A stretch of DNA of 64,000 nt from a virus: IMG/VR virus record IMGVR_UViG_3300031576_000004, positions 32,001 to 96,000 of that record. The stretch is one strand, 5' to 3'. Made by a program: the position numbers and the translations under genes. The notes below the pieces were generated by a model. That model did not search any database. It had not been told where the DNA came from and was given only the letters and a program-made list of their open reading frames with translations. Positions 5,481 through 57,495 of the stretch are shown piece after piece (position 1 is the stretch's first letter; each line of letters begins with the position of its first letter).

Positions 5481-6448
5481 ACTTGGAAGCCTAAATATAA
5501 CTAACTACACAAGGAGAACCACCATGCCCATGCAAATCGAGACTATGGATCCTATCCCTGCCGGCGAGAATCCCTTCCTGTATGACCATTACCATATGGG
5601 AACCAGGATTGGCGAGAATATCATCATCATGCACGCCAAGCACACCGAGCAGAAGCAGGGCTACGTAATTGTCTGCAACACAGAGACTGGAGAGCGCTTC
5701 AAGATCCATTTCGACCAAGTCCAGTCCAAAAAGGACGGACAGATCGCCAGTGTCATGAATATGATTCTGGCCTCGGAGAATATGTGACCTGCAAATTCCG
5801 TTGCCAGAACTGCAGATCAGAGTGGGAGCAGGATAAGCCTGGGATGACCCATTGTCAGAAGTGCCAGAGTCTGTATTGCGACTGGGTTAACTACGAGGAG
5901 GTACGCCATGGGCAAGGTGACGCTTTATCTGCAAGTGCGGGCGTAGAGACACAATAGAGTTGTGCTCCTGGGAGTCCTTCATGGACGAACTCGAGTGCTC
6001 GTGGTGTTTCGCTGCAAGGATCCAAGCTGAAATCGATAAACAACACAATGAAAAGGAGAACACAAAATGAGCGCTGACAATGGCCACTACATTCTCGATT
6101 GTCCTTCTGCTGACGGAAAGGCTCGAGAGTATCGAGTCGCTCACGCCATGGCCATCGAGAACATCTACTGGTGGCCGCTGCCGGGGAAGTTCTTCAAGAG
6201 CGGTCATCCAGCCTCGGAAGAGCGCAACGAGATCTGTCCAGAAGTTCTCGTCGAGTACTTTGGGAGAGCCGTGGTTATCTCCGATAAGGCCGGAGCACTC
6301 CTAAAGGCATCTGAGATGGAAGACGAGTGCCTCAGCTCTTGCGGGTTCGGGTCAGAATACGGCATATCGTTCATCAAATACGATAAGCCGTTTCCTGTGG
6401 CGCAACCACAAACCACTCCATAGTCTAGCTGACTAGATTACGGATAAG

Positions 6449-6503: not shown

Positions 6504-7160
6504 GTGGAACAAGAAGATCTAACATTCGAAGACCTGCCACATAAGTTGCGACAATACCAGAACGACAAGGCATGTTCTTTCTGTAAGGGCAAATGCTGCA
6601 AGACAATGCCTGGGATCACACACCCAACCGATTGGGGCGCACCAAATAAAAGAGAAATGCTATCGCGCCTAAAAGCCGCGTTTATAAGCGGCCGTTGGGC
6701 GCTCGACTGGTGGGAGGGCGATCCTAGATACGATAATCATCTCGATGCTCCAAATAACTCAAATAGTGTTACCTACTTCGTTCGTCCTGCAGTTAAGAAC
6801 AAAGAGGGCGAGATGAAACATGCCTCATGGGGAGGCGAGTGCACCTTTTTAACTATGGGTGGGTGCTCCCTAGAACACGATGATCGCCCAACGGAATGCA
6901 GAGCTCTGGAGCCGAACCAGAAGGTCTTCACAGATAAGACAGTCGGCTGCATATCAAAGCTTGGCGAAAAGAAAGAATTCACCATAGAGTGGCTCCCTTA
7001 TCAAAAGGTCGTTAAGGAAGCAATCTCTCAGGCAGAGGGAAGCTTGATCGATACTCCTACAATAGATTATGTCAGAGAGGCAGCCAGAGATCGGGTTAGA
7101 TTTAATAGGGGGAAAGAAGTCAATGACAGCACCAGGGATACTGCCACTAATAACGCCTGA
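6504..7160 (+). CDS. YkgJ-like cysteine-cluster (CxxCxxxCC) protein
   Basis: CSFCKGKCC...ECTFL...GCSL..DRPTECR pattern. Confidence 0.7.
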   Translation: MEQEDLTFEDLPHKLRQYQNDKACSFCKGKCCKTMPGITHPTDWGAPNKREMLSRLKAAFISGRWALDWWEGDPRYDNHLDAPNNSNSVTYFVRPAVKNKEGEMKHASWGGECTFLTMGGCSLEHDDRPTECRALEPNQKVFTDKTVGCISKLGEKKEFTIEWLPYQKVVKEAISQAEGSLIDTPTIDYVREAARDRVRFNRGKEVNDSTRDTATNNA

Positions 7161-7421
7161 GCTTGAGCTTCCGGATGAACTTGTTTTCGTCGATTGCGAA
7201 ATAAGAGATTTTTTCAAAGGCAAGCCTTACGTCTATGGAATCCCGACAATGGTCCAACTAAACAAAAACATGAAGACGTTGCTCGATCCATACGGTCACG
7301 ACAGCATGATATCTCGCCTTAGAGAGTTGACGCAGCAAATAGGCCAGCTGCGTCGTGATCTAGCTACGGTAAACGGCTCCGTTAACAAACTCTTAAAACC
7401 ACAAGAACATCAGGAGAGCAT

Positions 7422-7996: not shown

Positions 7997-9411
7997 AGCA
8001 TAGCCAAGCAATACATACTCAAACCGAGCAGCAAAACAGAACAGTACCGGCCCTGACGCAGCAGCTTGACGTAATGGCTCCCCATCCGATTTAGCAGCTA
8101 CATCCGACACGGCTACACGACATCGCACTGAGCAGCGAGACCAGATATCATATTCACCCGACCTCATGGAGCAGTGCGACGAAACGGAATGCGATTGATC
8201 CCCATATGACGTAGCGGCGGGACGTAATGAGATTAAACCGAATGAAGCACTACCGCATGGAGCAGCTACACTTCACCCGACTTCGCGACGCGATATGGAG
8301 CAGCGACACACCATTTCGTGACTCGTAATCGAACGTGATACAGCAGCAAGGCGAGACAACATGGTATTGAGACGTTATATAGCAGCGACGCGAGACGCGG
8401 CACGACGGGGTTACGCCAGATGAAGCAGCATCACGACATAAGACGAGACAAAGATTTCACGAGATGTAGCAGTTACACCTCATCCGATGCGCCGAGACGA
8501 GATCCAGCAGCTACGCAAGACCAAACCTCACGGGATAACATGCATTTAAAGCGGCTAAACCCCACCACGCCACATTCTATGCAATTGAATGACATGCATT
8601 CATAGCAGCGAGCTCCTACACCATCCAACTTTATGGGACGCCACGCCCTGTCATAAAGCAGCAAGACGTCACGGGACTTGATTTCGTATCATCCCATGGA
8701 GCAGCAAGATAAGACCGCTCAGCACGTAAGTTTCATGAAGCAGCAAGACGACATTACATATACTCCTTATCCAGCAGCATCATACGGCTACACTGGACGA
8801 GACCTAATGTGACGTAGCAGCGTAACGCCATGTTCCCGCACCGTATTAAACGTAGCAGCGAGATTACACCGGACCGGATTTCATAAGACGAAGCGGCAAG
8901 GCAAGACCACACCAGATCAGTTACCATGAAGCGGCACAGCACAACCTGACGAGATGACCCACATTCTCACAAGATACATTCGTAGCGGCATCATAATGCT
9001 GGACGACACATCTCAAGATGCAGCAGCAAAATGACACACCCTTTGACGAAGCAGCGAGCCATGACCAGATGTTCCCGAATATAGGCCTAGCGGCTACATA
9101 TGACGACATACGGCACAGCAAAGCAGCTTCACGACACGAGGCGCGGTCAGACAAGATCTAGCAGCAACATAACACTACTCTGGACTTAATATGATGAAGC
9201 AGCAAGATCCGGCACGACCTCTAGTTACAATACTTGATGCAGCAGCATGACGAGTCGAAATCGGCATAAGATGGCACAGGATGAAGCAGCCAGACGAGGC
9301 GAGACTGAGGCACGGCTACACGGCATGAAGCAGCTACACACAATAGAATCCCACGATGCTCGATAAATTCATAGCAGCAGGACGAGACACCACTACATTT
9401 CATGGAGCGGC
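7997..9411 (+). repeat. Non-coding pentamer-periodic array (NN-VAY units delimited by AGCAGC/AGCGGC); candidate guide-RNA array
   Basis: 35 delimiters from 8027 to 9406 enclose 34 units of length 8+5n (22 exact, 12 with one extra nt); no credible ORF. Confidence 0.9.
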
Positions 9412-31294: not shown

Positions 31295-33667
31295 GGTCCA
31301 ATTCTGAAGCTATTTCCGCCGCCGCAACGTCTTGATGCTTAAGGGGTAGCCACAGGATCTCACGGAAGGATGTTGTAATTGTTCCATTTTCTACTTCAAT
31401 CTACATCCATTTCCACGACTAATCAAGCTCCTTGTTCAAGGGCCAACTATGTCGTTGCTTTGCGTATTATGCTAAATGGGCCAAAAAACGGCCTGCAGCA
31501 CGTCAGAACGATCCGGTGGCTAGTCCTGGGCATCTGGGTCGTGTTGTTTGGCTAGGATGTCAAGGACGGGGCGCTGCTCATCGGCTAGGAAGACTTCCTT
31601 GGCCAGATCTGGGAGATCCATCCCAGTCTTCTCCAAGCAGCAGGTGCACACGGCATTAAAGTACCCCAGCCAGAAGATAGACTCCTGACTTACACCCCTA
31701 CTTCCACAAACCGAGCATCCAGTGCTGCCTGGTTCGGTCAATGTACGCCCTCCTCACTGCTTCATGTTATAGCACTTATAGGCGTGGATGGCAATAGGGC
31801 GTTTTCCGGTATAAGAGTATGTGAAGGCATTTGTGCTTCGGTTCTTATTTGAGAGGGGAGAATTGGCGGTGTCCTGTGGCTCATTACGAAGAAGGCGCTC
31901 GGAAGGAGTTGATCAGCCTTATCAGGGTATTGGTAGAGAAAGAGCTCTACCCAACAAAAGAGCAGGTGGATAAGGCGATCGACATTGCGTTGGACAGGAT
32001 GATTAAAGACGTGAAGCATAATATCTCACGTAATTAATCCTTTTGTCGTGCGGCGGCGGGGCAACGTTGAGCCTCGCTGCCGCATCTTATCAGTCACCAA
32101 TGTTTATTAGCTTCTATATCCAATTTAACCACACAGGAGGCATCTATGCCTAACATTTGCGGGAGCACGAGGAACCATCATAATGCACAGACAATTATTT
32201 TTGATGGATACTCTAACTGCTTTGACGTGAAAACACCGAAAGACAAGTATGACAGAAATTATGTATACGCTGCTCTGCGTTGCGCTTCATGTGGAGCATT
32301 AAAATTCCACGTTGGGTCATATACAAGTGGCTGGTTAAAAGCTGGAATAAAAATGTCGAAGCTTAGATGGAAAAAGCATTGGAGCCAAAAATGAACACGC
32401 CAACAACTCCAATCACGCACGGAGGCACAGAGCGCACATATCAATTCTGCAAATGCAGGGAATGCGGCAGAATCGAGCGCTGCACACCAGATTTCGATTT
32501 CTATACCACAGCTAGAGACGGAGACACAGGACCGCTTTATTGCGAGAGCTGCATTTACGCTGTCCACGACCGACACAAGGCAGAGGATAAAGCGCGCAAA
32601 GAGGCTGAAGGAATAAGGAATATTGGATGGAAAACATTACAACTAACAACATAGATAGGAGACCAGAATGAATTACGCCATGGCTTTGCTCGTCGGCGTT
32701 GTTATTGGCTCAGGCCTCTGCAAGCTGACGTGGCTCTATTTCGGGAAGCCATGCAGCCCGATGTGCAATGGAAATGAAAATTACCAAAAGCTCATCGATG
32801 CATGCAAATGGTCTAAATGGCTTATTGATCAGAAGGAATACAAAGAAGTGCGCGAGCGTTTAAACGCCACAGGCTGGCAAGACACAGAGATAATTTATGA
32901 GATGCTTGAAACCGCGCTTAAACAGGAGAACCCATGCACGACATAATCCAAAACTGCTGCGTCGCCATTTGCTTTGGGACCACAGCTAATATCCACAGCA
33001 ATAACGATCTTTCCATGAGCTGCTCTTTCGCGATCTTCGGATACATCCTCAGCTCTATTAGGTGTGATATCAGGGATATCAGGAGGAAGTAATGGACGTA
33101 CAAGATCTTTTCGAAAAGCACGAAGATGAATTCATCAAGTTCGACAGGGTGCCTGAGCACACACGCGTGACCAATAGGGCAGACATTAATGCCTTTATCC
33201 TGCTGGATAAGTTTGTTCCTGGAGCCACCGATATGGTGTGCTCCGCTGGGCACGATGAGATCTGGCTGGACGTAAGCCCAGATGATCTGCAGGCAGGACT
33301 CAATGCCGCCGGCCTCTCTGAGCAGGATAAAGAGAATGTGGTCATCACTCTTGCCCGCTGTGGAGTGCGCTACGACAGCGAAACTGATTCATTGGCCATG
33401 TTTGTCTAATGCATCCTCGCTATCTCCATGTTTGCGATGGACACCGGTTCCTGGGATATCACGGCATTACAGATCTGTGGTATTGCCCAGATAAGGCTGG
33501 AGACCATCTGCTAATAGCCAGATACAGCAGTGGGGTGGCTGATTTCTCGTCCTATTCTGTAAGCTCAATATCTCTGAAAGAATTCAATAACTGGAGAGAA
33601 GAGATATTCAGCCGCGTCAGAGAGATGGAGCTGACAGGGTTCTATGTCCCATAATCGCAGGAGAAAC

Positions 33668-49575: not shown

Positions 49576-50325
49576 ATGAAACTTACGAGTAAGGATCTTG
49601 AAGAAGTTTATGAGGGCGAGACTCGGTTTGTTAAGGCAAAGGCGATGTTCGTTACCCCTCTGGTTGGCGGCGTTCCTGCCAGCCGTGAGGGTGTAGAGAA
49701 CTATGTCGAGTTCGCCATGAATCTTGTCCGTGACTCCCAGGAGTTCAAGGACAAGGTAGCCGAGATCTTGAAGGAAGAGATCGGCGAGAGAGAGATCAAG
49801 CCAGATGAGGGCGAGAAGGATGAGGTTGCGTCCTATGGCGTTAACTGCATCCGCAAGGATAAGTTCGGCCATTTCCTGATGGACTTCCAGATCAAGGCCA
49901 ACCTGAAGTGCGCTGCATCAAGGATCGGGCTATTCGTGGCCGATAAGGCCGCCGGCCGTAAGGCTGGAGCCAAGGGAGATATGGCTGAGCTCGGACGAGT
50001 TCACGCTATCGGTGCCTCATTGAGGGATGTTGAAAACAAGAGGAAGATCTATCTTCTTCAGAATGGCGGAACCCCAGTAAAGACTGTCTATGAGAAGTTC
50101 ATGGGCAAGGTGAGCAACGCCTCTGGCTCTCACTCCATCGTCCATGACTCTGAGGTCGCCCCTGCTGGAACCTGGTTCGAATTCGAGTTCAGGGCTCCGG
50201 ACAAGCGCCTCAAGGCTGAGGACTTCAAGCGCATCTTCGCGCACTCTGGTATTATCGGCTTCGGTTCCGCTCGTTCTCTGGAGCGCGGCAAGGTCGAGTA
50301 TCAGGAAGTTGAGATCGAGGATTAG
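49576..50325 (+). CDS. Stand-alone RAMP/Cas7-like protein
   Basis: MFVTPLVGGVP (beta1), QIKANLK, SEVAPAGTWFEFEF and the C-terminal G-loop GFGSARSLERGKVE. Confidence 0.75.
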   Translation: MKLTSKDLEEVYEGETRFVKAKAMFVTPLVGGVPASREGVENYVEFAMNLVRDSQEFKDKVAEILKEEIGEREIKPDEGEKDEVASYGVNCIRKDKFGHFLMDFQIKANLKCAASRIGLFVADKAAGRKAGAKGDMAELGRVHAIGASLRDVENKRKIYLLQNGGTPVKTVYEKFMGKVSNASGSHSIVHDSEVAPAGTWFEFEFRAPDKRLKAEDFKRIFAHSGIIGFGSARSLERGKVEYQEVEIED

Positions 50326-50331
50326 TTAGTA

Positions 50332-50479
50332 ATTGGTTGGCGGCGGCGTGGAGAGCAGACACGCTTAAACAATACTGCGGATCCTACCCAATCACTGGAA
50401 CAGGTAGATTGAAGCCTATTGTTTTGCTGGACCCAGTGAATTCCAGATAGCCAGAGTAGCGCCTGGCCCGCCAACCAAT
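50332..50479 (+). ncRNA. tRNA-like RNA (about 148 nt)
   Basis: ATTGGTTGGCGG/CCGCCAACCAAT stem; D-arm GCGTG-GAGAGCAGA-CACGC; T-arm GCCAG-AGTAGCGC-CTGGC. Confidence 0.65.
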
Positions 50480-50497
50480 CTTTTTTGAAATTAGTTG

Positions 50498-50526
50498 TTG
50501 ACACCTATCCCATAGAATGCTAAAGT
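50498..50526 (+). promoter_or_regulatory. Sigma70 promoter of the tRNA operon
   Basis: TTGACA-17 nt-TAAAGT with an extended -10 TGn. Confidence 0.75.
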
Positions 50527-50543
50527 TCGCCCCGAGGAGATCC

Positions 50544-50669
50544 ATGCTTTCATATAGGAAACCCTTTATTCAATTGTCGTGCGTGTGGGGAGAAAGCCTC
50601 CCACTACGCCCGATAACGCTCCATTCCGCCGGTCAGGCGGATAATACAAAGGAGCGGAGACTGGGATAA
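50544..50669 (+). CDS. 41-aa pan-codon leader peptide MLSYRKPFIQLSCVWGESLPLRPITLHSAGQADNTKERRLG
   Basis: GAGGAG RBS; 39 distinct codons of 41; all 20 amino acids; the stop abuts the antiterminator. Confidence 0.8.
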   Translation: MLSYRKPFIQLSCVWGESLPLRPITLHSAGQADNTKERRLG

Positions 50670-50700
50670 CGGGTTCCGAACTAGAGATAAAAGGAACCCG
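50670..50700 (+). promoter_or_regulatory. Antiterminator hairpin
   Basis: CGGGTTCC (50670-50677) is perfectly complementary to GGAACCCG (50693-50700), which overlaps the terminator 5' arm. Confidence 0.75.
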
Positions 50701-50736
50701 AAATCCCTGAAAAGGAATTTCGGGTTTTTTGTTTTT
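50695..50736 (+). terminator. Attenuator terminator upstream of the tRNA array
   Basis: AACCCGAAAT-C-CCT-GAAA-AGG-A-ATTTCGGGTT followed by TTTTGTTTTT. Confidence 0.85.
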
Positions 50737-50774
50737 ACCTAGGACGACGAAAGGACGGTGCGGAAGAAATAACT

Positions 50775-50849
50775 GGGTCCTAAGCATTAACAGTGATGCA
50801 GTTGGCTCTTAACCAACAGAAGAGGGTGCGATTCCCTCAGGACCCACCA
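50775..50849 (+). tRNA. tRNA-Lys(CTT)
   Basis: Cloverleaf; encoded CCA. Confidence 0.9.
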
Positions 50850-50851
50850 AT

Positions 50852-50926
50852 GGGCTGTAAGCTTTAAAAGTGAAGCAGTTGGCCTTTAACCAACAGAACT
50901 CGGAGCGTTACCGAGGCGGCCCACCA
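50852..50926 (+). tRNA. tRNA-Lys(TTT)
   Basis: Cloverleaf; C33; T-loop AGCGTTA; CCA. Confidence 0.88.
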
Positions 50927-50941
50927 ACTAATGATTTAAAC

Positions 50942-51017
50942 GGTGCTATGGTGTAGCGGCTCTGCATGCCTGGTTGTCAACCAGTAGGTCCGAGTTCGAC
51001 TCTCGGTAGTACCGCCA
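50942..51017 (+). tRNA. tRNA-Asp(GTC)
   Basis: Cloverleaf; G73; CCA. Confidence 0.9.
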
Positions 51018-51032
51018 GATTAGATCGGTTCG

Positions 51033-51045
51033 GTTCTTTGAAAAC
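51033..51045 (+). promoter_or_regulatory. boxA-like antitermination element
   Basis: GTTCTTTGAAAAC resembles rRNA-operon boxA. Confidence 0.55.
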
Positions 51046-51109
51046 TTTGCGTGCGGGAACACCTGACTGAAGGAACTTCAGTAGGCCCGCATGATGTTGT
51101 GTGGTAAAT

Positions 51110-51185
51110 GCGCGCTTAACTCAGCGGCTAGAGTGCCTCTTTTACACGGAGGAAGTCAGGGGTTCGAGTCCCTTAGCGCGTACCA
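51110..51185 (+). tRNA. tRNA-Val(TAC)
   Basis: Canonical cloverleaf; CCA. Confidence 0.93.
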
Positions 51186-51187
51186 GT

Positions 51188-51262
51188 TGCCCTGTCGTCT
51201 AATTGGCAAGACGCGAGACTTTGGATCTCGCTATTCAGGTTCGAACCCTGGCGGGGCAACCA
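51188..51262 (+). tRNA. tRNA-Gln(TTG)
   Basis: Cloverleaf; U1-A72; CCA. Confidence 0.92.
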
Positions 51263-51272
51263 ATTTAAATAT

Positions 51273-51347
51273 CGGGCTCTAGGCTCGGAGTGAGCCGCTT
51301 GTTTCGGGAACAAGAGGCGGCGTGTGCAACTCACGCGAGCCCGACCA
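51273..51347 (+). tRNA. tRNA-Pro(CGG)
   Basis: Cloverleaf; C1-G72; CCA. Confidence 0.88.
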
Positions 51348-51348
51348 T

Positions 51349-51423
51349 TCAGGAGTAGTTCAATTGGTAGAACGACAGACTCTGGATCTGTAGATCTTGG
51401 TTCGATTCCAGGCTCCTGAACCA
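51349..51423 (+). tRNA. tRNA-Gln(CTG)
   Basis: Cloverleaf; CCA. Confidence 0.92.
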
Positions 51424-51442
51424 ATAGTAAACGATAAAATAT

Positions 51443-51517
51443 GGACCTGTAGCTCAAGGGTCAGAGCACGTGCCTTATAAGCACTAGACGGTGGTTCGAC
51501 TCCACCCAGGTCTACCA
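51443..51517 (+). tRNA. tRNA-Ile(TAT)
   Basis: Cloverleaf; loop CT-TAT-AA; CCA. Confidence 0.88.
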
Positions 51518-51518
51518 T

Positions 51519-51592
51519 GCGGGTTTAGCTCAAAAGAAGAGTGTTAGCGTGACATGCTAAAGACAGAGGAGCGTTACCTCTAACCCGCACCA
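51519..51592 (+). tRNA. tRNA-Val(GAC)
   Basis: Cloverleaf; T-loop AGCGTTA; CCA. Confidence 0.88.
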
Positions 51593-51593
51593 T

Positions 51594-51668
51594 CCACCCT
51601 TAACATAGAAGTCTATGTGCCTGTCTGATACGCAGGAAATCGTGGAGCGTTACCACGAGGGTGGACCA
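51594..51668 (+). tRNA. tRNA-Ile(GAT)
   Basis: Cloverleaf; T-loop AGCGTTA; CCA. Confidence 0.82.
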
Positions 51669-51687
51669 ATATAACAGGAGTTTATTC

Positions 51688-52056
51688 ATGCCATACAAAG
51701 ACCCAGCCATTCAGAGAGCATTCCAAAACAAATTCTTAAAAGAAAGACGGGATCTATGGCTAGCATCTAATGGCCCATGCTCCTGCGGATCTCGAATAGA
51801 TCTTCAAGTCGACCATGTGGATCCAAGCAAAAAGGTGGATCATAAAGTTTGGTCATGGTCAGAAAAAAGAAGAGCCGAAGAGTTGTCTAAATGCCAAGTT
51901 CTTTGCAAGAAGTGTCATAGAAAAAAGACGAACAAAGACAACAATTATGGACAAATCCACGGCACATATAATTCGTATAAACGATATTGTTGCCGGTGCG
52001 CTCCATGCAAAAAAGCTTCGGCAGAAGATAGAAGAAGGTGGAAGCGAAATAGATAA
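51688..52056 (+). CDS. HNH endonuclease within the tRNA array
   Basis: CSCG...LQVDHVDP...CQVLCKKCH; AGGAG RBS. Confidence 0.8.
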   Translation: MPYKDPAIQRAFQNKFLKERRDLWLASNGPCSCGSRIDLQVDHVDPSKKVDHKVWSWSEKRRAEELSKCQVLCKKCHRKKTNKDNNYGQIHGTYNSYKRYCCRCAPCKKASAEDRRRWKRNR

Positions 52057-52059
52057 CTT

Positions 52060-52134
52060 CGGGGTGTAGCTCAGAGGAAGAGCGCCTGGTTTGGGACCAG
52101 GAGGCCGAGATATCATAATTCTCCACCCCGACCA
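52060..52134 (+). tRNA. tRNA-Pro(TGG)
   Basis: Cloverleaf with an atypical T-loop; CCA. Confidence 0.85.
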
Positions 52135-52136
52135 AT

Positions 52137-52212
52137 GGTGGCTATAGCTCAAGTAGTAGAGCACGGGTCTGTGGAACCTGTTATGCGAGTGCAAGTCTCG
52201 CTAGTCACCCCA
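52137..52212 (+). tRNA. tRNA-His(GTG)
   Basis: G-1/C73; cloverleaf; CCA. Confidence 0.9.
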
Positions 52213-52221
52213 ACACAAAGT

Positions 52222-52328
52222 GCGCCGACCGATCGGATGGACGATCAGTGGGGATATCCCTTACCCATGAATACGCCCGAAAGGGGAATAGTGGGATAGC
52301 CAGAATCAATCCTGGCGCGGCGTTACCA
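52222..52328 (+). ncRNA. tRNA-like RNA (about 107 nt)
   Basis: GCGCCG/CGGCGT stem; D-arm GATCG-GATGGA-CGATC; T-arm GCCAG-AATCAATC-CTGGC; ends in ACCA. Confidence 0.6.
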
Positions 52329-52329
52329 A

Positions 52330-52403
52330 GGGCATTCAGCTCGGAAGTCGAGCGCTTCCCTGAAGAGGAAGAGAGCCAGGAGCGTTACCTGGAATGCCCA
52401 CCA
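52330..52403 (+). tRNA. tRNA-Phe(GAA)
   Basis: Cloverleaf; T-loop AGCGTTA; CCA. Confidence 0.88.
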
Positions 52404-52412
52404 ATCAAACAT

Positions 52413-52486
52413 GGGCTTCTAGTTCAACGGTAGAACGTCAGCCCTGCAAGCTGAATATCGGAGTTCGATTCTCCGGAGGTCCACCA
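52413..52486 (+). tRNA. tRNA-Ala(TGC)
   Basis: G3-U70; C33; CCA. Confidence 0.9.
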
Positions 52487-52487
52487 T

Positions 52488-52561
52488 CCGGCTGTAGCTC
52501 AATGGCAGAGCGCTAGCTTCCCAAGCTAGTTACGGGGGTTCGATTCCCCTCAGCCGGTCCA
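52488..52561 (+). tRNA. tRNA-Gly(CCC)
   Basis: Cloverleaf; U73; CCA. Confidence 0.92.
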
Positions 52562-52562
52562 A

Positions 52563-52636
52563 CCACCTGTAGCTCAATGGTAGAGCGTCTCTTTGCCAAG
52601 GAGAACACGGGAGTTCGATTCTCCTCAGGTGGTCCA
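52563..52636 (+). tRNA. tRNA-Gly(GCC)
   Basis: Cloverleaf; U73; CCA. Confidence 0.92.
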
Positions 52637-52644
52637 TTAAAATT

Positions 52645-52718
52645 GCACGTGTATCTCAATGGCAGAGAGCGAGTTTTCCAAACTCGTTACGAGGGTTCGA
52701 TTCCCTCCACGTGCTCCA
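52645..52718 (+). tRNA. tRNA-Gly(TCC)
   Basis: Cloverleaf; U73; CCA. Confidence 0.92.
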
Positions 52719-52719
52719 A

Positions 52720-52793
52720 GCCCGCATAGCTTAGTGGCAGAGCACCTCATTGGTAATGAGGAGATACTGGTCCGATTCCAGTTGTGGGCTCCA
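52720..52793 (+). tRNA. tRNA-Thr(GGT)
   Basis: Cloverleaf; CCA. Confidence 0.92.
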
Positions 52794-52794
52794 A

Positions 52795-52868
52795 GCTACT
52801 GTAGTTCAATAGTAGAATCTCTCACTCGTAATGAGAGGACGGCGGAGCGTAACCGCCCAGTAGCTCCA
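52795..52868 (+). tRNA. tRNA-Thr(CGT)
   Basis: Cloverleaf; T-loop AGCGTAA; CCA. Confidence 0.88.
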
Positions 52869-52869
52869 A

Positions 52870-52943
52870 GCTGGTATAGTTCAACGGCAGAATAGGTGCC
52901 TTGTAAGCACTTGATGAGGGTTCAATTCCTTCTACCAGCTCCA
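52870..52943 (+). tRNA. tRNA-Thr(TGT)
   Basis: Cloverleaf; CCA. Confidence 0.92.
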
Positions 52944-52954
52944 ATAAGATCCGT

Positions 52955-53039
52955 TCAGGGGCAGCATGATGGTCATGCGCCTGGCTGTTAACCAGCGTCC
53001 GCAAGGACAATGTGGGTTCGAGTCCCACCCCCTGAGCCA
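52955..53039 (+). tRNA. tRNA-Asn(GTT) with a long variable arm
   Basis: Loop CT-GTT-AA; V-arm GTCC-GCAA-GGAC; G73; CCA. Confidence 0.85.
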
Positions 53040-53040
53040 C

Positions 53041-53128
53041 CCCGTACTAGGCAGATAAAGATTCTGCGCAGACTGTAAATCTGAAGCCTTAAAAGCCACT
53101 CCTGGAGCATTACCAGGGTACGGGACCA
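53041..53128 (+). tRNA. tRNA-Tyr(GTA), C1-G72 type
   Basis: CCCGTAC/GTACGGG acceptor; loop CT-GTA-AA; long variable region; CCA. Confidence 0.82.
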
Positions 53129-53137
53129 TTAAATATC

Positions 53138-53350
53138 GCGGGGAGACATGTTCGAAGCAGGACCAATCCTTAATCGGATTGATATAGTGTAATAGGCAGC
53201 ACACCCGCATTTGTTTTAGATATGGAGAGAGAGGTGGGTTCGATTCCCACGCGGTGGAAGGAAGCATTCGTATGCCGTAGCGGTATAGGATCCCGAGTAG
53301 TAAGCGGGGTCTTGCATGCTGACAGCCGTTGTCTGGGCCGAGCTCTCCGC
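53138..53350 (+). ncRNA. Structured RNA with embedded tRNA D- and T-arm motifs
   Basis: GCGGGGAG/CTCTCCGC closing stem; TAGTGTAATAGGCAGCAC and GTGGGTTCGATTCCCAC inside. Confidence 0.45.
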
Positions 53351-53355
53351 ATTTT

Positions 53356-53430
53356 GCTCTCGTCGTATACTAGTTAATACCTCTGGTTCTCATCCAGAAA
53401 AAAGCGGAGCGTAACCGCTCGAGAGCACCA
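53356..53430 (+). tRNA. tRNA-Glu(CTC)
   Basis: Cloverleaf; T-loop AGCGTAA; CCA. Confidence 0.87.
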
Positions 53431-53432
53431 AC

Positions 53433-53506
53433 GGCGCATTCCTCTATCGGCAGGAGACCTGGTTTTCACCCAGGCAAGACGAGTTCGACTCTCGTATGCG
53501 CTACCA
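53433..53506 (+). tRNA. tRNA-Glu(TTC)
   Basis: Cloverleaf; CCA. Confidence 0.9.
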
Positions 53507-53513
53507 TAAATTC

Positions 53514-53584
53514 GGGTCGTCTTCTGGGGAAGAGCTAGAACTCCAAATCCTGGCAGGAAGGTTCAATTCCTTCACGACCCGCCA
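53514..53584 (+). tRNA. tRNA-Trp(CCA), compact D-arm
   Basis: GGGTCGT/ACGACCC acceptor; loop CT-CCA-AA; G73; CCA; 71 nt. Confidence 0.78.
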
Positions 53585-53592
53585 AAATCTAA

Positions 53593-53669
53593 GGCCGATA
53601 AGCTAAAGCATAGGAAGCGCCTGCCTGCAGAGCAGGTATTAATTGGTGAAACTCCAATATCGGCCTCCA
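53593..53669 (+). tRNA. tRNA-Cys(GCA)
   Basis: Cloverleaf; U73; CCA. Confidence 0.87.
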
Positions 53670-53690
53670 ATCTTTCTGATATAATACGGG

Positions 53691-53764
53691 CGCGGGATAG
53701 TGAAGTAGTATCACGTGAGCCTCATAAGCTCAAGACCTCCGTGCGAACCGGAGTCCCGCTACCA
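53691..53764 (+). tRNA. tRNA-Met(CAT), initiator-like
   Basis: CGCGGGA 5' end with an unpaired C1:U72; CCA. Confidence 0.85.
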
Positions 53765-53783
53765 CCTAATATTAGGAGGGCGC

Positions 53784-54113
53784 ATGCCGCCAAAGTTGCT
53801 CACTGCGAACAGAAAAAAGTATGACGCCACTTACGCTGTTAAAACAAAAAAGACAAGGCATGAGTTCTTTTTAAAAGTCGGTTCTTATTGTCTTTTCTGC
53901 AGAAAGCGAAAACATCTGAAATGTCATCGTACTGATTGGATCCGACACGTTCCTTTTGAGAATATGTCGCGTGTAAAGCTTGCGGCAGAAAATCCAAAAG
54001 AATACGCGAGAGTTTGTTTCGGCTGCCATTATGGGGTTCATTGGCTACATGACCGTTTTGGACTTACTTGGCCTGAGATTCTCGCGCTTAAAGCTAGAAA
54101 ACGGAAGGTTTGA
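53784..54113 (+). CDS. HNH-like protein within the tRNA array
   Basis: CLFC..HLKCH...VCFGCH; AGGAGG RBS; 3' end overlaps tRNA-Ser. Confidence 0.55.
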   Translation: MPPKLLTANRKKYDATYAVKTKKTRHEFFLKVGSYCLFCRKRKHLKCHRTDWIRHVPFENMSRVKLAAENPKEYARVCFGCHYGVHWLHDRFGLTWPEILALKARKRKV

Positions 54114-54193
54114 GCATTGGCAAGCTCACCCGCCTTGAAAGCGGACAGTCGGTGAAAGCCGGCTTGCGAGTCCGACTCTCGCACCTTCCTCCA
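54103..54193 (+). tRNA. tRNA-Ser(TGA)
   Basis: Long V-arm; CCA. Confidence 0.88.
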
Positions 54194-54202
54194 ATTATGC
54201 AT

Positions 54203-54287
54203 GGAGAGCAAACTAACCGGTGGTTAGCCTAGTCCCGAAAACTAGTGGGCGCATTGCGCTGGGGTGCGAGTCCTCTACTCTCCGCCA
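54203..54287 (+). tRNA. tRNA-Ser(CGA)
   Basis: Long V-arm; C33; G73; CCA. Confidence 0.8.
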
Positions 54288-54294
54288 TTAAAAT

Positions 54295-54407
54295 AGCCCT
54301 GTGCGTTCTGTGCGCGACAGAAAGAGCCGTTGAGCTCCCAGAGGGGTATCTCTAGTTGAGCCGCGGTGAAACGAACGGGTGATCCAATTCACTCACAGGG
54401 CTTTCCA
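54295..54407 (+). ncRNA. tRNA-like RNA (about 113 nt)
   Basis: AGCCCTGTG/CACAGGGCT stem; T-arm-like GGTGA-TCCAAT-TCACT; ends in TCCA. Confidence 0.5.
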
Positions 54408-54408
54408 T

Positions 54409-54496
54409 GGATAGGATTGAGAGCGGCTACTCTACCCAAGTTGGAAGCTTGGCAGGTGTAAAAGCCTTGTGGGTTCGACGCCCACCCTATCCGCCA
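54409..54496 (+). tRNA. tRNA-Ser(GGA)
   Basis: Long V-arm; G73; CCA. Confidence 0.85.
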
Positions 54497-54503
54497 AAAC
54501 TAT

Positions 54504-54591
54504 GGAGTGAATTGCAAGCGGCTATGCTAACCGGTTTGCTAAACCGACACGGGTAACACCGTTGAGCGTTCGACTCGCTCTCACTCCGCCA
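54504..54591 (+). tRNA. tRNA-Ser(GCT)
   Basis: Long V-arm; G73; CCA. Confidence 0.85.
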
Positions 54592-54593
54592 AT

Positions 54594-54667
54594 GGCTAGG
54601 TAGTTCAATAGTAGAACGTGGGTTTCATAAGCCCAAGACGATGGAGCGTAACCATCCCTAGCTACCA
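54594..54667 (+). tRNA. tRNA-Met(CAT), elongator (lysidine Ile2 not excluded)
   Basis: Cloverleaf; T-loop AGCGTAA; CCA. Confidence 0.85.
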
Positions 54668-54668
54668 A

Positions 54669-54753
54669 CCGCTCGTGGGGGAATAGCAGTCCCATCCGGC
54701 TCAGAACCGGACGGTTAACAGCCATGCAGGTGCAACTCCTGCCGAGCGGACCA
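54669..54753 (+). tRNA. tRNA-Leu(CAG)
   Basis: Long V-arm; A73; CCA. Confidence 0.87.
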
Positions 54754-54760
54754 AACTAAT

Positions 54761-54842
54761 CCCGAGGTGGTGGAACAGCAGACACAGCAGCCTCAAAAAC
54801 TGCCGCGAAAGCGTGAGAGTGCAATTCTCTCCCTCGGGACCA
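54761..54842 (+). tRNA. tRNA-Leu(CAA)
   Basis: Long V-arm; A73; CCA. Confidence 0.87.
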
Positions 54843-54845
54843 TTC

Positions 54846-54931
54846 GCGGATGTGGCGTAACGGCAGCCGCACCAGCTTGAGGTGCTGGCGCTCGAAAGGG
54901 CGTGCAGGTTCGACTCCTGTCATCCGCACCA
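54846..54931 (+). tRNA. tRNA-Leu(GAG)
   Basis: Long V-arm; A73; CCA. Confidence 0.92.
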
Positions 54932-54937
54932 ATCTTT

Positions 54938-55011
54938 GTCCCTGTAGGCTAATAGAAGACCACAGCGCTACGAACGCTGAAATCCTCGTGCAAATCGAGG
55001 CAGGGATACCA
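54938..55011 (+). tRNA. tRNA-Arg(ACG)
   Basis: Cloverleaf; CCA. Confidence 0.87.
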
Positions 55012-55020
55012 ATAAATAAT

Positions 55021-55105
55021 GGGGGAGTGGCGGAACTGGCAGACGCGCTAGCCTTAGGAGCTAGTGGGTAATACCGTGCAGGTTCAAATCCTGTCTCCCT
55101 CACCA
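55021..55105 (+). tRNA. tRNA-Leu(TAG)
   Basis: Canonical; long V-arm; CCA. Confidence 0.93.
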
Positions 55106-55106
55106 T

Positions 55107-55177
55107 GCCCCGCGTGCCGAGCACATCCAGCTCTTCTAAAGCAGGATCGCCAGGATTAACACCTGGGCGGGGTACCA
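55107..55177 (+). tRNA. tRNA-Arg(TCT), truncated D-arm and extended anticodon stem
   Basis: GCCCCGC/GCGGGGT acceptor; loop CT-TCT-AA; CCA; 71 nt. Confidence 0.7.
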
Positions 55178-55186
55178 ACTTTAAAT

Positions 55187-55261
55187 GCCCGATTCTTCCA
55201 GCAGATAGGATACCGCTCTCCGAAAGCGGCGACCCGTGTGCAAGTCACGGATCGGGCACCA
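55187..55261 (+). tRNA. tRNA-Arg(CCG)
   Basis: Cloverleaf; CCA. Confidence 0.87.
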
Positions 55262-55263
55262 AT

Positions 55264-55338
55264 GGGCCTGTGGTGTAACGGATAGCATGCTCCTTTCCTA
55301 AAGGAACGGCGAAGGTTCAATTCCTTCCAGGCCTACCA
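55264..55338 (+). tRNA. tRNA-Arg(CCT)
   Basis: Cloverleaf; CCA. Confidence 0.9.
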
Positions 55339-55344
55339 TTCTGT

Positions 55345-55421
55345 GCGGGGGTGATGTAATTGGCAAACATCTGCGACTTAAAATCGCGGTTCTACGGGTT
55401 CAAATCCCGTCCCCCGTACCA
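55345..55421 (+). tRNA. tRNA-Leu(TAA) with a short variable loop
   Basis: Loop CT-TAA-AA; 5-nt variable loop; CCA. Confidence 0.85.
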
Positions 55422-55488
55422 CACAACATCATTGCGTCTCGCAAACAAAGTATTGACATGTTAGTTGACTGGAAGCATTATTAACATC

Positions 55489-55974
55489 ATGGAATACAAT
55501 AAACAAACAAAAACATGTCCGCACTGCAAAAGAACTCTCCCTGTGAAGGCTTTTCCGCCTAGACATGTCGGAGAAAATTATCCAGGATCATATTGCTATG
55601 AGTGCAATCGGAAAAGAGGGAAAAAGTACTACAAAAAGAATAAAAAGATATGGGTCGAATGGGCAAAAAATAATAAAGATAAGGTGGCTGAGAGCAACAG
55701 AAGAACTTGGGATAAGTTAAGAAATGGACTGTTTGACGCTTATGGTGGCAGATGTACATGCTGCAAAGAAAGTCATAGAGAATTTTTAAACTTAGAACAT
55801 ATCAAGAAAGACGGACAAAAAGAGCGAAAGCTGCTCAGAAACAATAGGACTGTTTACAGGAAAGTGCGTGATGCTGGATATCCAAAAGACCGCTATACAA
55901 TTCTATGCTGGAACTGTAATGTTGTAGAACGACATGGGAAAACGTGTCCACATAAATTAGAAAAGAGGAATTAA
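55489..55974 (+). CDS. HNH-like endonuclease
   Basis: CPHC..CYEC Zn finger; YGGRCTCC...LNLEHI...LCWNCN; TTGACA-17-CATTAT at 55453-55481. Confidence 0.75.
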   Translation: MEYNKQTKTCPHCKRTLPVKAFPPRHVGENYPGSYCYECNRKRGKKYYKKNKKIWVEWAKNNKDKVAESNRRTWDKLRNGLFDAYGGRCTCCKESHREFLNLEHIKKDGQKERKLLRNNRTVYRKVRDAGYPKDRYTILCWNCNVVERHGKTCPHKLEKRN

Positions 55975-55975
55975 A

Positions 55976-56575
55976 ATGACTTGTATGGTTCTCGATAGCC
56001 CAGTCTTGGAATTGAACAAAAGTTGGATGCCGTTAAATATTATTGACGCGCGTCGGGCTTTTTCCATGATGATGGCTGGACTGGCGAGAGCCGTCGAGCC
56101 TGAAACGTATCAGCTTCACACATTCGATACCTGGGCTGATCTATTAGCTATGGATGACGAACCTGTTATTCACACCGTCAGCCTGGCTCTTAAGATCCCA
56201 GAGATCATCGTGCTGAACAAGTATGACGCCATGCCAATGAAGAAGACCATCTTCAGCCGGCGCAACGTCTACAAGCGGGATAAGAACACCTGTCAGTATT
56301 GTGGATCTCAGCCTGGGACAGAGGAAATAACCATCGACCACGTTATTCCAAAGTCTAAGGGTGGGCAGTCTTCTTGGACTAACTGCGTGTGTGCTTGCGT
56401 ACCTTGCAACGCCAAGAAGGCTGCCAAGACGCTGGTCCAGGCAAAGATGAGGCTAAAGCATCTACCTATTGAGCCTAAGTGGACGCCTGGGATGGCAATA
56501 GCTAGATTCAACATGAAGTCATCCTGGAGCAAGTTCATTAGCGACGCCTACTGGAATGTGGAGCTTCAGGGCTAA
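55976..56575 (+). CDS. HNH endonuclease (McrA-like)
   Basis: VLELN...RRNVYKRDKNTCQYCG...TIDHVIPKSKGG.SSWTNCVCAC.PCN..K. Confidence 0.9.
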   Translation: MTCMVLDSPVLELNKSWMPLNIIDARRAFSMMMAGLARAVEPETYQLHTFDTWADLLAMDDEPVIHTVSLALKIPEIIVLNKYDAMPMKKTIFSRRNVYKRDKNTCQYCGSQPGTEEITIDHVIPKSKGGQSSWTNCVCACVPCNAKKAAKTLVQAKMRLKHLPIEPKWTPGMAIARFNMKSSWSKFISDAYWNVELQG

Positions 56576-57104: not shown

Positions 57105-57495
57105 GGGGGTGAATAGATTCGACTGATTACGTACGGACTAAAGGTGCGTCTCGCGGAAGTCTGCTCGGCCGCGTTAAAAAAGCAGGCACACATTACATGC
57201 TAACAGCAATGTAATCAACGGCAGCTTCGGCTCACGGGCCGGAGTGGTCGCTATGGCTGCTTAGGCAACCATGGAAATCGAAGCGCAAAGTCTGTAGCGC
57301 CGAGAGGATAAACGCAGGCTGGACCCAGGAACTGGATCGCACTGGGTTGAGATAAGATCCTAGCTGACGGGGTTAGATGATGGCAAAACAGGTGACCCGA
57401 AGGCGAAATCTAACCGCATCTGATCCATTAATAGACGTAGCAACCTTTAGCTGAATGTTTTCAGGACGCGGGTGCGAATCCCGCCACCTCCACCA
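57105..57495 (+). ncRNA. ssrA: tmRNA; tag (A)ANSNVINGSFGSRAGVVAMAA*
   Basis: GGGGGTG...GATTCGAC 5' end; GCGGGTGCGAATCCCGC T-arm; CACCTCCACCA 3' end; G3-U; tag ORF 57199-57264. Confidence 0.92.

Follow-up and report, generated by a model that had tools for sequence, protein, structure and literature searches.

Examination of a 64,000-nucleotide (nt) stretch of viral DNA (positions 32,001 to 96,000 of IMG/VR record IMGVR_UViG_3300031576_000004, hereafter the window) revealed a compact leader cassette placed before a large array of transfer RNA (tRNA) genes. A promoter, a Shine-Dalgarno (SD) sequence with its ATG, a short and directly promoter-proximal open reading frame (ORF), a candidate antiterminator and a terminator all lie inside 240 nt, and we give an even chance to the reading that this element is a ribosome-coupled transcription attenuator which gates read-through into the array. 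The argument is built on the sequence features of the cassette, on their conservation in a distant relative (locus L027) and on the two-state energetics of both leaders. In most discussions, the large tRNA arrays of phages figure as aids to codon usage or as reserves against host defences that cleave tRNAs, and we know of little on how they are regulated.

Structure of the leader cassette

The following features of the window are involved:

50498-50526, plus strand: sigma-70-type promoter, TTGACA-17-TAAAGT, with a TG extended -10 and 10/12 consensus matches
50534-50539, plus strand: SD-like GAGGAG, with the ATG 4 nt away (6 nt from GAGG)
50544-50669, plus strand: putative leader ORF MLSYRKPFIQLSCVWGESLPLRPITLHSAGQADNTKERRLG, ATG at 50544, 41 sense codons, TAA at 50667-50669
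50557-50571, plus strand: region 1, GGAAaCCCuUUAUUC, the 5' strand of the predicted long-range helix P1, in ORF codons 5-10, pairing with 50664-50677
50574-50616, plus strand: predicted hairpin P2, inside the ORF, with helices 50574-50579/50611-50616, 50581-50585/50605-50609 and 50588-50592/50598-50602
50617-50656, plus strand: predicted hairpin P3, inside the ORF, with helices 50617-50622/50651-50656 and 50625-50630/50636-50641 and the conserved GGCGGAUAAUA...AGGAG
50664-50677, plus strand: region 2, GGAUAAcGGGUUCC, which holds the 3' strand of P1, the stop codon and the antiterminator 5' arm CGGGUUCC (50670-50677)
50693-50700, plus strand: region 3, GGAACCCG, a partner for either region 2 (antiterminator) or region 4 (terminator)
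50694-50736, plus strand: intrinsic terminator, a 14-pair interrupted stem of about -19 kcal/mol followed by UUUUUUGUUUUU (TTTTTTGTTTTT)
50775-55421, plus strand: tRNA array, 42 tRNA genes carrying 40 different anticodons, with one HNH endonuclease gene and one unassigned ORF in between

A first-pass annotation of this DNA had described the promoter, the GAGGAG, the 41-codon ORF, the antiterminator and the terminator, and all of its sequence statements were confirmed. Missing from it was the pairing of region 2 with the upstream stretch 50557-50571, which closes a three-way junction inside the ORF. The promoter at 50498 contains the only plus-strand TTGACA upstream of the array, and transcription probably starts near 50533-50535. 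Consensus scans found neither another TTGACA-type promoter nor a plus-strand terminator inside the array, and no consensus promoter between the terminator and the array, which agrees with the earlier proposal that the leader gates the array.

The phage's own genes use GGAG or GAGG at 5-8 nt as SD sequence, and the GAGGAG of the window is unpaired in the predicted fold. At the other end of the ORF, UAA (50667-50669) is immediately followed by CGGGUUCC, and a ribosome whose A site holds UAA would shield the RNA to about 50679. In DNA letters this arm reads CGGGTTCC (50670-50677), and it has complementarity to GGAACCCG (50693-50700), which forms the outer 5' arm of the terminator. Two terminator stems (50694-50704/50717-50727 and 50706-50708/50713-50715) lead into a U-run (50725-50736), whose end is 38 nt away from the first tRNA (50775).

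Codon diversity and breadth of array tRNAs in the leader

The leader ORF contains 39 distinct codons among 41, only CTC and GGA being repeated, and encodes all 20 amino acids. About 30 distinct codons had been estimated for chance in the first-pass annotation, and uniform codon draws give 30.0, with a probability of 9.5e-6 for at least 39. None of 29,863 stop-free composition-preserving shuffles reached 39, and none of the other 86,028 stop-free 41-codon windows in the six frames of the 163-kb genome equals the leader ORF. The highest value found elsewhere is 37 distinct codons, and the other two frames of the leader stretch have 33 and 32. The excess of codon diversity is real and frame-specific.

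Breadth was measured as the number of distinct array tRNAs that a leader needs, each codon being assigned to the best tRNA in its own array. The window leader needs 36 of 40 array tRNAs (uniform null 24.1 +/- 2.1), a value reached by none of 100,000 random ORFs (P<1e-5) and at no other place in the genome. The L027 leader needs 30 of 40 (uniform null 25.3 +/- 2.1; P=0.022) and ranks 44th of 10,247 locus windows (0.4%). With a standard-wobble count, the leaders cover 37 (window) and 34 (L027) of 40 anticodons in frame and the other frames are ordinary (24-26/40); strict Watson-Crick decoding gives 26/40 for the window (P=0.007). Moreover, the Arg tRNAs (ACG, TCT, CCG, CCT) and Ser tRNAs (TGA, CGA, GGA, GCT) of the array match the Arg and Ser codons of the leader, four of each, as had been claimed from the first reading. 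Because eleven codons are common to the two leaders by descent, L027 has a small head start in breadth, and the replication of tRNA breadth in this relative is suggestive, not strong.

Conservation of the cassette in a distant relative

For the AAA ATPase encoded 1.2 kb upstream, a homologue of 56% identity was found on a Logan contig of 190,922 bp, which carries a tRNA array with the same gene order. Look-up of a gene inside this locus extended it to the start of the array, and the resulting locus L027 contains a counterpart of the cassette:

5909-5938: promoter, TTGACA-18-TAAACT, homologous to the window promoter
5955-6092: leader ORF of 45 codons, open, called as a gene by the source's gene caller
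5984-6031: predicted hairpin P2
6032-6081: predicted hairpin P3

At the SD sequence, CCGAGGAGA is identical between the window and L027 and is followed in both by CATG; behind the leader come tRNA-Lys, Lys and Asp genes matching those of the window. The leader peptides are 41% identical, a frame-blind nucleotide alignment places only two gaps, of 3 and 9 nt, and the other two reading frames are closed in both leaders. The stop codon abuts the antiterminator 5' arm in the window and overlaps it in L027, where UAG shares one base with GGCUUCUUUCC. The leader ORF is probably translated, since both sequences have a conserved SD-ATG, a maintained frame with indels in multiples of three only and a stop at the antiterminator arm.

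The L027 leader is predicted to adopt the same architecture, a P1-closed three-way junction with P2 and P3 followed by a terminator-type hairpin. One pair of the P3 outer helix shows a compensatory change, from CGCUCC/GGAGCG in the window to CCCUCC/GGAGGG in L027. An RNAalifold run on a MAFFT alignment misaligned P3 and P1 and was excluded from the pair counts. Arms 1 to 4 have no common sequence between the two leaders, as can be read from their listing in the order 1/2/3/4:

Window: GGAAaCCC / CGGGUUCC / GGAACCCG / CGGGUUU
L027: GAGGAGA..GAAGUC..UAGGCC / GGCCUAGGCUUCUUUCCUC / GAGGGA..AAGAAGCC.GAGGCCC / CUCGGCUUC

Complementarity 1:2, 2:3 and 3:4 is kept in each of them, and its maintenance despite such divergence is the strongest indication that the alternative pairings function. 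The attenuator geometry put forward in the first-pass annotation is therefore found again in L027 with wholly different yet complementary arms, together with the SD-ATG, the ORF and the position of the stop.

Between the -10 element and the presumed transcription start, a G+C-rich TCGCCCC is found in the window (50527-50533) and GATCGCC in L027 (5939-5945). By analogy, this stretch may be compared with the discriminators of stringently controlled rRNA/tRNA promoters.

Alternative folds of the leader RNA

Both leaders fold far better than shuffled sequences (z of -5.4 for the window and -6.3 for L027). Constrained folding gave -75.6 kcal/mol for the OFF fold and -74.1 kcal/mol for the ON fold of the window, and -97.0 and -94.1 kcal/mol, respectively, for L027; the antiterminator hairpin folded alone has -14.6 kcal/mol. 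Both leaders are thus modelled as balanced switches, bistable within 1.5-3 kcal/mol.

The presence of a ribosome was modelled by blocking a 28-nt footprint at each P-site codon before folding. With the footprint at the last codons or the stop, the terminator alone remains, which is consistent with the earlier suggestion that a ribosome reaching the stop masks the antiterminator. The antiterminator is favoured by 2-5 kcal/mol for P-site codons 5-16 in the window and 1-9 in L027; when P1 is barred from closing around the ribosome, the L027 antiterminator wins at every P-site codon up to 39. As modelled, the folds fit the classical logic in which no translation or complete translation would give the OFF state and a stall the ON state.

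A search of the leader (301 nt, E<=10) and of L027 against Rfam 15 gave no hit above noise, riboswitch and T-box classes included. Readings of the leader as a T-box, YrlA, a piece of transfer-messenger RNA (tmRNA), 6S or a hepatitis delta virus (HDV)-like (theta) ribozyme were without model support.

Proposed mechanism

In the mechanism that we favour, transcription would start from an early, host-type promoter and the attenuator would gate read-through into the phage tRNA array; translation of the ORF, efficiency of termination and response to stalling are steps that we infer. The ORF would run from the 5' end of the transcript through region 1, P2 and P3 and end exactly at region 2. In the OFF state, the 1:2 helix would close the three-way junction with P2 and P3 and regions 3 and 4 would form the terminator, while in the ON state regions 2 and 3 would form the antiterminator. 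A ribosome at the stop would cover region 2, the terminator would form and array expression would stay low; with no translation at all, the 1:2 helix would lead to the same OFF outcome. A ribosome stalled in the ORF would leave region 2 free for region 3, and RNA polymerase would enter the tRNA genes. This effect should be clearest for stalls over region 1, and probable at any position should the ribosome keep the 1:2 helix from closing around it.

Since the leader draws on 36 of the 40 tRNA species behind it, such a switch would report a shortage of many tRNAs. The breadth of codon sampling may itself have been selected, which is the least certain part of the proposal. In its full form, the leader would be a selected roster of the array, acting as a sensor of the whole tRNA pool and as a counter-defence circuit: depletion of almost any array tRNA, whether by an anticodon nuclease, shut-off degradation or starvation, would stall the leader ribosome, form the antiterminator and turn on the 42-tRNA array. 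We hold this extension only tentatively and find it somewhat doubtful; it fits the window and the analogy with Caulobacter phage CcrBL9 described below, and L027 weakly.

If the attenuator reading is true, the cassette would form a feedback loop that senses its own class of product, and leader-peptide attenuation would be applied to tRNA genes. Induction of replacement tRNAs by a phage upon tRNA depletion would become testable with a compact and portable element. If the breadth has been selected, this would be the first case of an attenuator made for sensing many tRNAs together.

Evidence against the attenuator and alternative explanations

Several observations weigh against an attenuator of this kind. 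The P-value of the window leader is inflated by selection, because its extreme diversity was the reason for picking it; it cannot carry the interpretation alone and a homologue is required. Diversity in homologous leaders had been named beforehand as the test capable of overturning the pan-codon idea, and the raw diversity of the L027 leader is ordinary (34/45 distinct codons, P=0.25 under the uniform null, top 6.6% of its locus). Strict Watson-Crick decoding gives L027 no excess (22/40, P=0.44) and ten of its array tRNAs are unsampled by its leader. By that test L027 speaks against a pan-codon design, and the claim is replicated only weakly, tRNA breadth being mildly high there. The folds do not yield the first-pass proposal that a stall at any codon would turn the array on: beyond the early codons listed above, stalls favour the terminator by 1-5 kcal/mol where closure of P1 around the ribosome is allowed, and the claim for any codon depends on a steric assumption that folding cannot settle.

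Other points concern translation and termination. The transcript appears to begin at or just before the SD sequence, an unusually short 5' end for ribosome loading, and in L027 the long-range helix P1 sequesters the SD sequence. The peptide is poorly conserved, the openness of the ORF rests on two sequences, and the substitutions have no significant coding bias (syn/nonsyn 5/25 in frame 0 versus 3/29 and 5/28 in the others). The L027 terminator hairpin is followed by AAACGUUUU, with no adjacent U-run, and was unflagged by the terminator scan. Finally, conservation is highest in P2 and P3, which sit within the ORF as an aptamer would.

This conservation, the lack of a significant coding signal in the substitutions and the pairing of the L027 SD sequence within P1 would all suit an RNA-only switch, either a riboswitch or a protein- or RNA-binding leader, in which the P1-P2-P3 junction is the sensor and the ORF a by-product of stop-free structured sequence. 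Stabilised P1 would then lead to the terminator, and opened P1 would release its 3' strand to form the antiterminator; a P1 3' strand that doubles as antiterminator arm is the usual riboswitch expression platform, and the conserved internal loop GGCGGAUAAUA and the covarying P1 point in the same direction. We nevertheless consider such a switch unlikely. It leaves unexplained the conserved GAGGAG-ATG, unpaired in the window, as well as the open frame with indels of 3n only and the stop exactly at the antiterminator arm in both lineages. Neither leader is matched by an Rfam family, not even at E<=10 over the short stretch, and no other copy of the motif was found in 185,579 prokaryote genomes or in viral and metagenome contigs (the viral scan used a shorter motif, CCGCCGG..GGCGGATAATA, omitting the trailing AGGAG), which makes a widespread aptamer class unlikely. 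Moreover, in a relative of about 87% identity from a sediment run, represented by contigs of up to 430 nt, the leader flanks align and the central 99 nt of the leader do not at 80%.

The strength of the terminator raises another explanation, in which nothing is sensed. With a strong and canonical terminator, the bulk of transcription should yield an RNA of about 200 nt, and the promoter-to-terminator unit could be a small gene, for a small RNA (sRNA) or a 41-amino-acid (aa) protein, or a stable 5' leader, with a codon breadth due to chance and an array expressed by constitutive terminator leak or by phage-specific promoters invisible to a consensus scan. Attenuator-derived RNAs with functions of their own are known, as in rnTrpL/peTrpL (PMC6614838, PMC7968998). 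Other structured RNAs stand beside tRNAs in this phage lineage, and a leader chosen for extreme diversity with a homologue ordinary on that measure is compatible with chance. We judge this explanation quite improbable: unless the RNA switches, it is hard to account for alternative folds of nearly equal energy that are retained through complete covariation of four arms, the absence of a clean U-run after the L027 hairpin means that a discrete sRNA end is not conserved, and tRNA breadth is raised in both leaders in the ORF frame only. Ribosome-coupled attenuation remains our preferred reading of the cassette.

The tRNA array and its surroundings

The first-pass annotation had placed the leader before an array of 41 tRNAs; the position is right and the count is 42. 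Default ARAGORN found 33 tRNAs, and relaxed ARAGORN combined with Rfam gave the 42 plus-strand genes, adding Lys-TTT, Val-GAC, Ile-GAT, Pro-TGG, Tyr, Cys, Ser-CGA, a Ser-like gene and Arg-TCT. Matches to PHROG identify three HNH endonuclease genes (51661-52056, 55465-55974 and 55976-56575) inside or just after the array, one of which (199 aa) is common to L027. A 227-nt gap in the array (53129-53355) contains a 14-codon mini-ORF with GGGGAG before its ATG, the U-rich ATTTGTTTT and a T-arm-like fragment, and is possibly an internal cassette or a tRNA remnant. Both phages carry an 85-nt tRNA-Asn (GTT) with a long extra arm (window 52955-53039, L027 9468-9552), adjoined in L027 by a tRNA-Asn of normal size.

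In the L027 array, Y-RNA-like (YrlA) matches at 7187-7315, 6777-6908 and 8188-8318 reach at best 51.7 bits (E 1e-9) and fall short of the Rfam gathering score. A gene for a Ro60-like protein, with a vWA_Ro60 match and a faint one to TROVE, lies on the relative's contig as well (L019 13550-15109). Judged from these sequences, the RNAs and the gene look like a phage-borne Ro60/Y-RNA module beside the tRNAs.

Upstream of the array, two structured stretches lie between the end of a 249-aa gene (50325) and the first tRNA (50775), the second of which is the leader cassette:

49576-50325: 249-aa gene, directly before the leader region

This gene has no Pfam or PHROG match. Its homologues (about 40-46% identity) are scattered across unrelated phage and prophage contexts without arrays, several of them near integrases. 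The first structured stretch, at 50332-50487 directly upstream of the leader promoter, has a counterpart in L027 (5644-5850) with the same end motifs at the same place. It has a 12-bp closing stem UUGGUUGGCGG/CCGCCAACCAA, a 5' GGCGGCGGCGUGG and a T-arm-like hairpin near the 3' end, followed by a U-run; its fold has a z of -2.6 and no Rfam family match was obtained. A phage tmRNA is located after the array in the window (57105-57495; Rfam 103 bits) and just before the leader region in L027 (5240-5632), so this block has been rearranged.

The window belongs to the 163-kb record of an uncultivated virus of cave metagenome origin. Of the sequencing runs listed as containing this DNA, none is of RNA. 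The phage appears to be myovirus-like, based on a match to Baseplate_J and a weak one to a gp10 domain, and INPHARED searches with DNA and protein found no close relative among deposited phages.

Searches for further relatives

The same INPHARED searches found no relative of the leader or of the 249-aa gene before it, and the tRNA array matched by generic tRNA similarity only. Scans of viral, metagenome and genome contigs, with neighbour proteins, exact tRNA-Asp and tRNA-Asn stretches, the P3 motif, SD-ATG-TCAT.TAGG and the 3' end of the first tRNA-Lys as queries, gave no second homologue beyond L027; the lone hit of the scan (L028) was a chance match in a coding region. A word search found no homologue of the leader peptide, and a profile of both peptides run against 1.84 billion representatives recovered only that of L027. 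Relatives of the AAA ATPase (L020-L026 and L030-L040) have no array beside the gene, except L038, where an array is present and no comparable cassette was seen. Full-text literature searches found no description of an attenuator or riboswitch upstream of tRNA arrays in phages; the nearest match, theta ribozymes beside viral tRNAs, is a different thing.

Comparison with known systems

A close parallel in design is found in the attenuators of amino acid operons, such as trpL, hisL, pheL and the multivalent ilvL/thrL of enterobacteria, in which a promoter-proximal short ORF with an SD sequence and a terminator precede the regulated genes. They share with the present leader the four segments that pair either as 1:2 and 3:4 or as 2:3, with a ribosome at the stop masking segment 2. 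Unlike them, the window leader has 39 different codons among 41 and no run for one or a few amino acids, so that the cluster of regulatory codons of classical attenuators is absent. With 41-45 codons, the ORF is long, and it extends over a three-way junction; the regulated genes are tRNAs, hence the sensed quantity would be the product class. Family membership by sequence is not applicable to these attenuators.

Three-way-junction riboswitches with a terminator platform (purine, TPP [thiamine pyrophosphate]) resemble the leader in that the P1 3' strand pairs alternatively with the terminator 5' arm and in that the inner helices are conserved while P1 covaries. In contrast to them, the leader has no curated family match, has a conserved SD-ATG and an open frame, and was found in two phage contigs only. 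Attenuation of pyrBI/pyrE also works with no special codon run and with an outcome that depends on the distance between ribosome and RNA polymerase. The pyrBI ORF crosses the terminator and its ribosome prevents termination, whereas the present leader ends before the switch and a terminating ribosome should favour termination.

Finally, the Caulobacter phage CcrBL9 carries a 39-codon ORF, gp149 (MH588546.1 81307-81426), located 120 nt before a block of 12 tRNAs. This ORF uses 12/12 of the block tRNAs, where windows of the locus average 6.5 +/- 1.8 and 16 of 11,801 reach 12. A short ORF upstream of a tRNA block that uses the block tRNAs far beyond chance (12/12 there, 36/40 here) is thus common to both, and the window and L027 leaders each use more of their own array's tRNAs than expected by chance, mildly so in L027, and in their own frame only. 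The two systems have no sequence similarity and belong to unrelated phage lineages. The CcrBL9 block has 12 tRNAs for 8 amino acids and a compositionally skewed leader, whereas the array described here is near-complete and its leader is maximally diverse.

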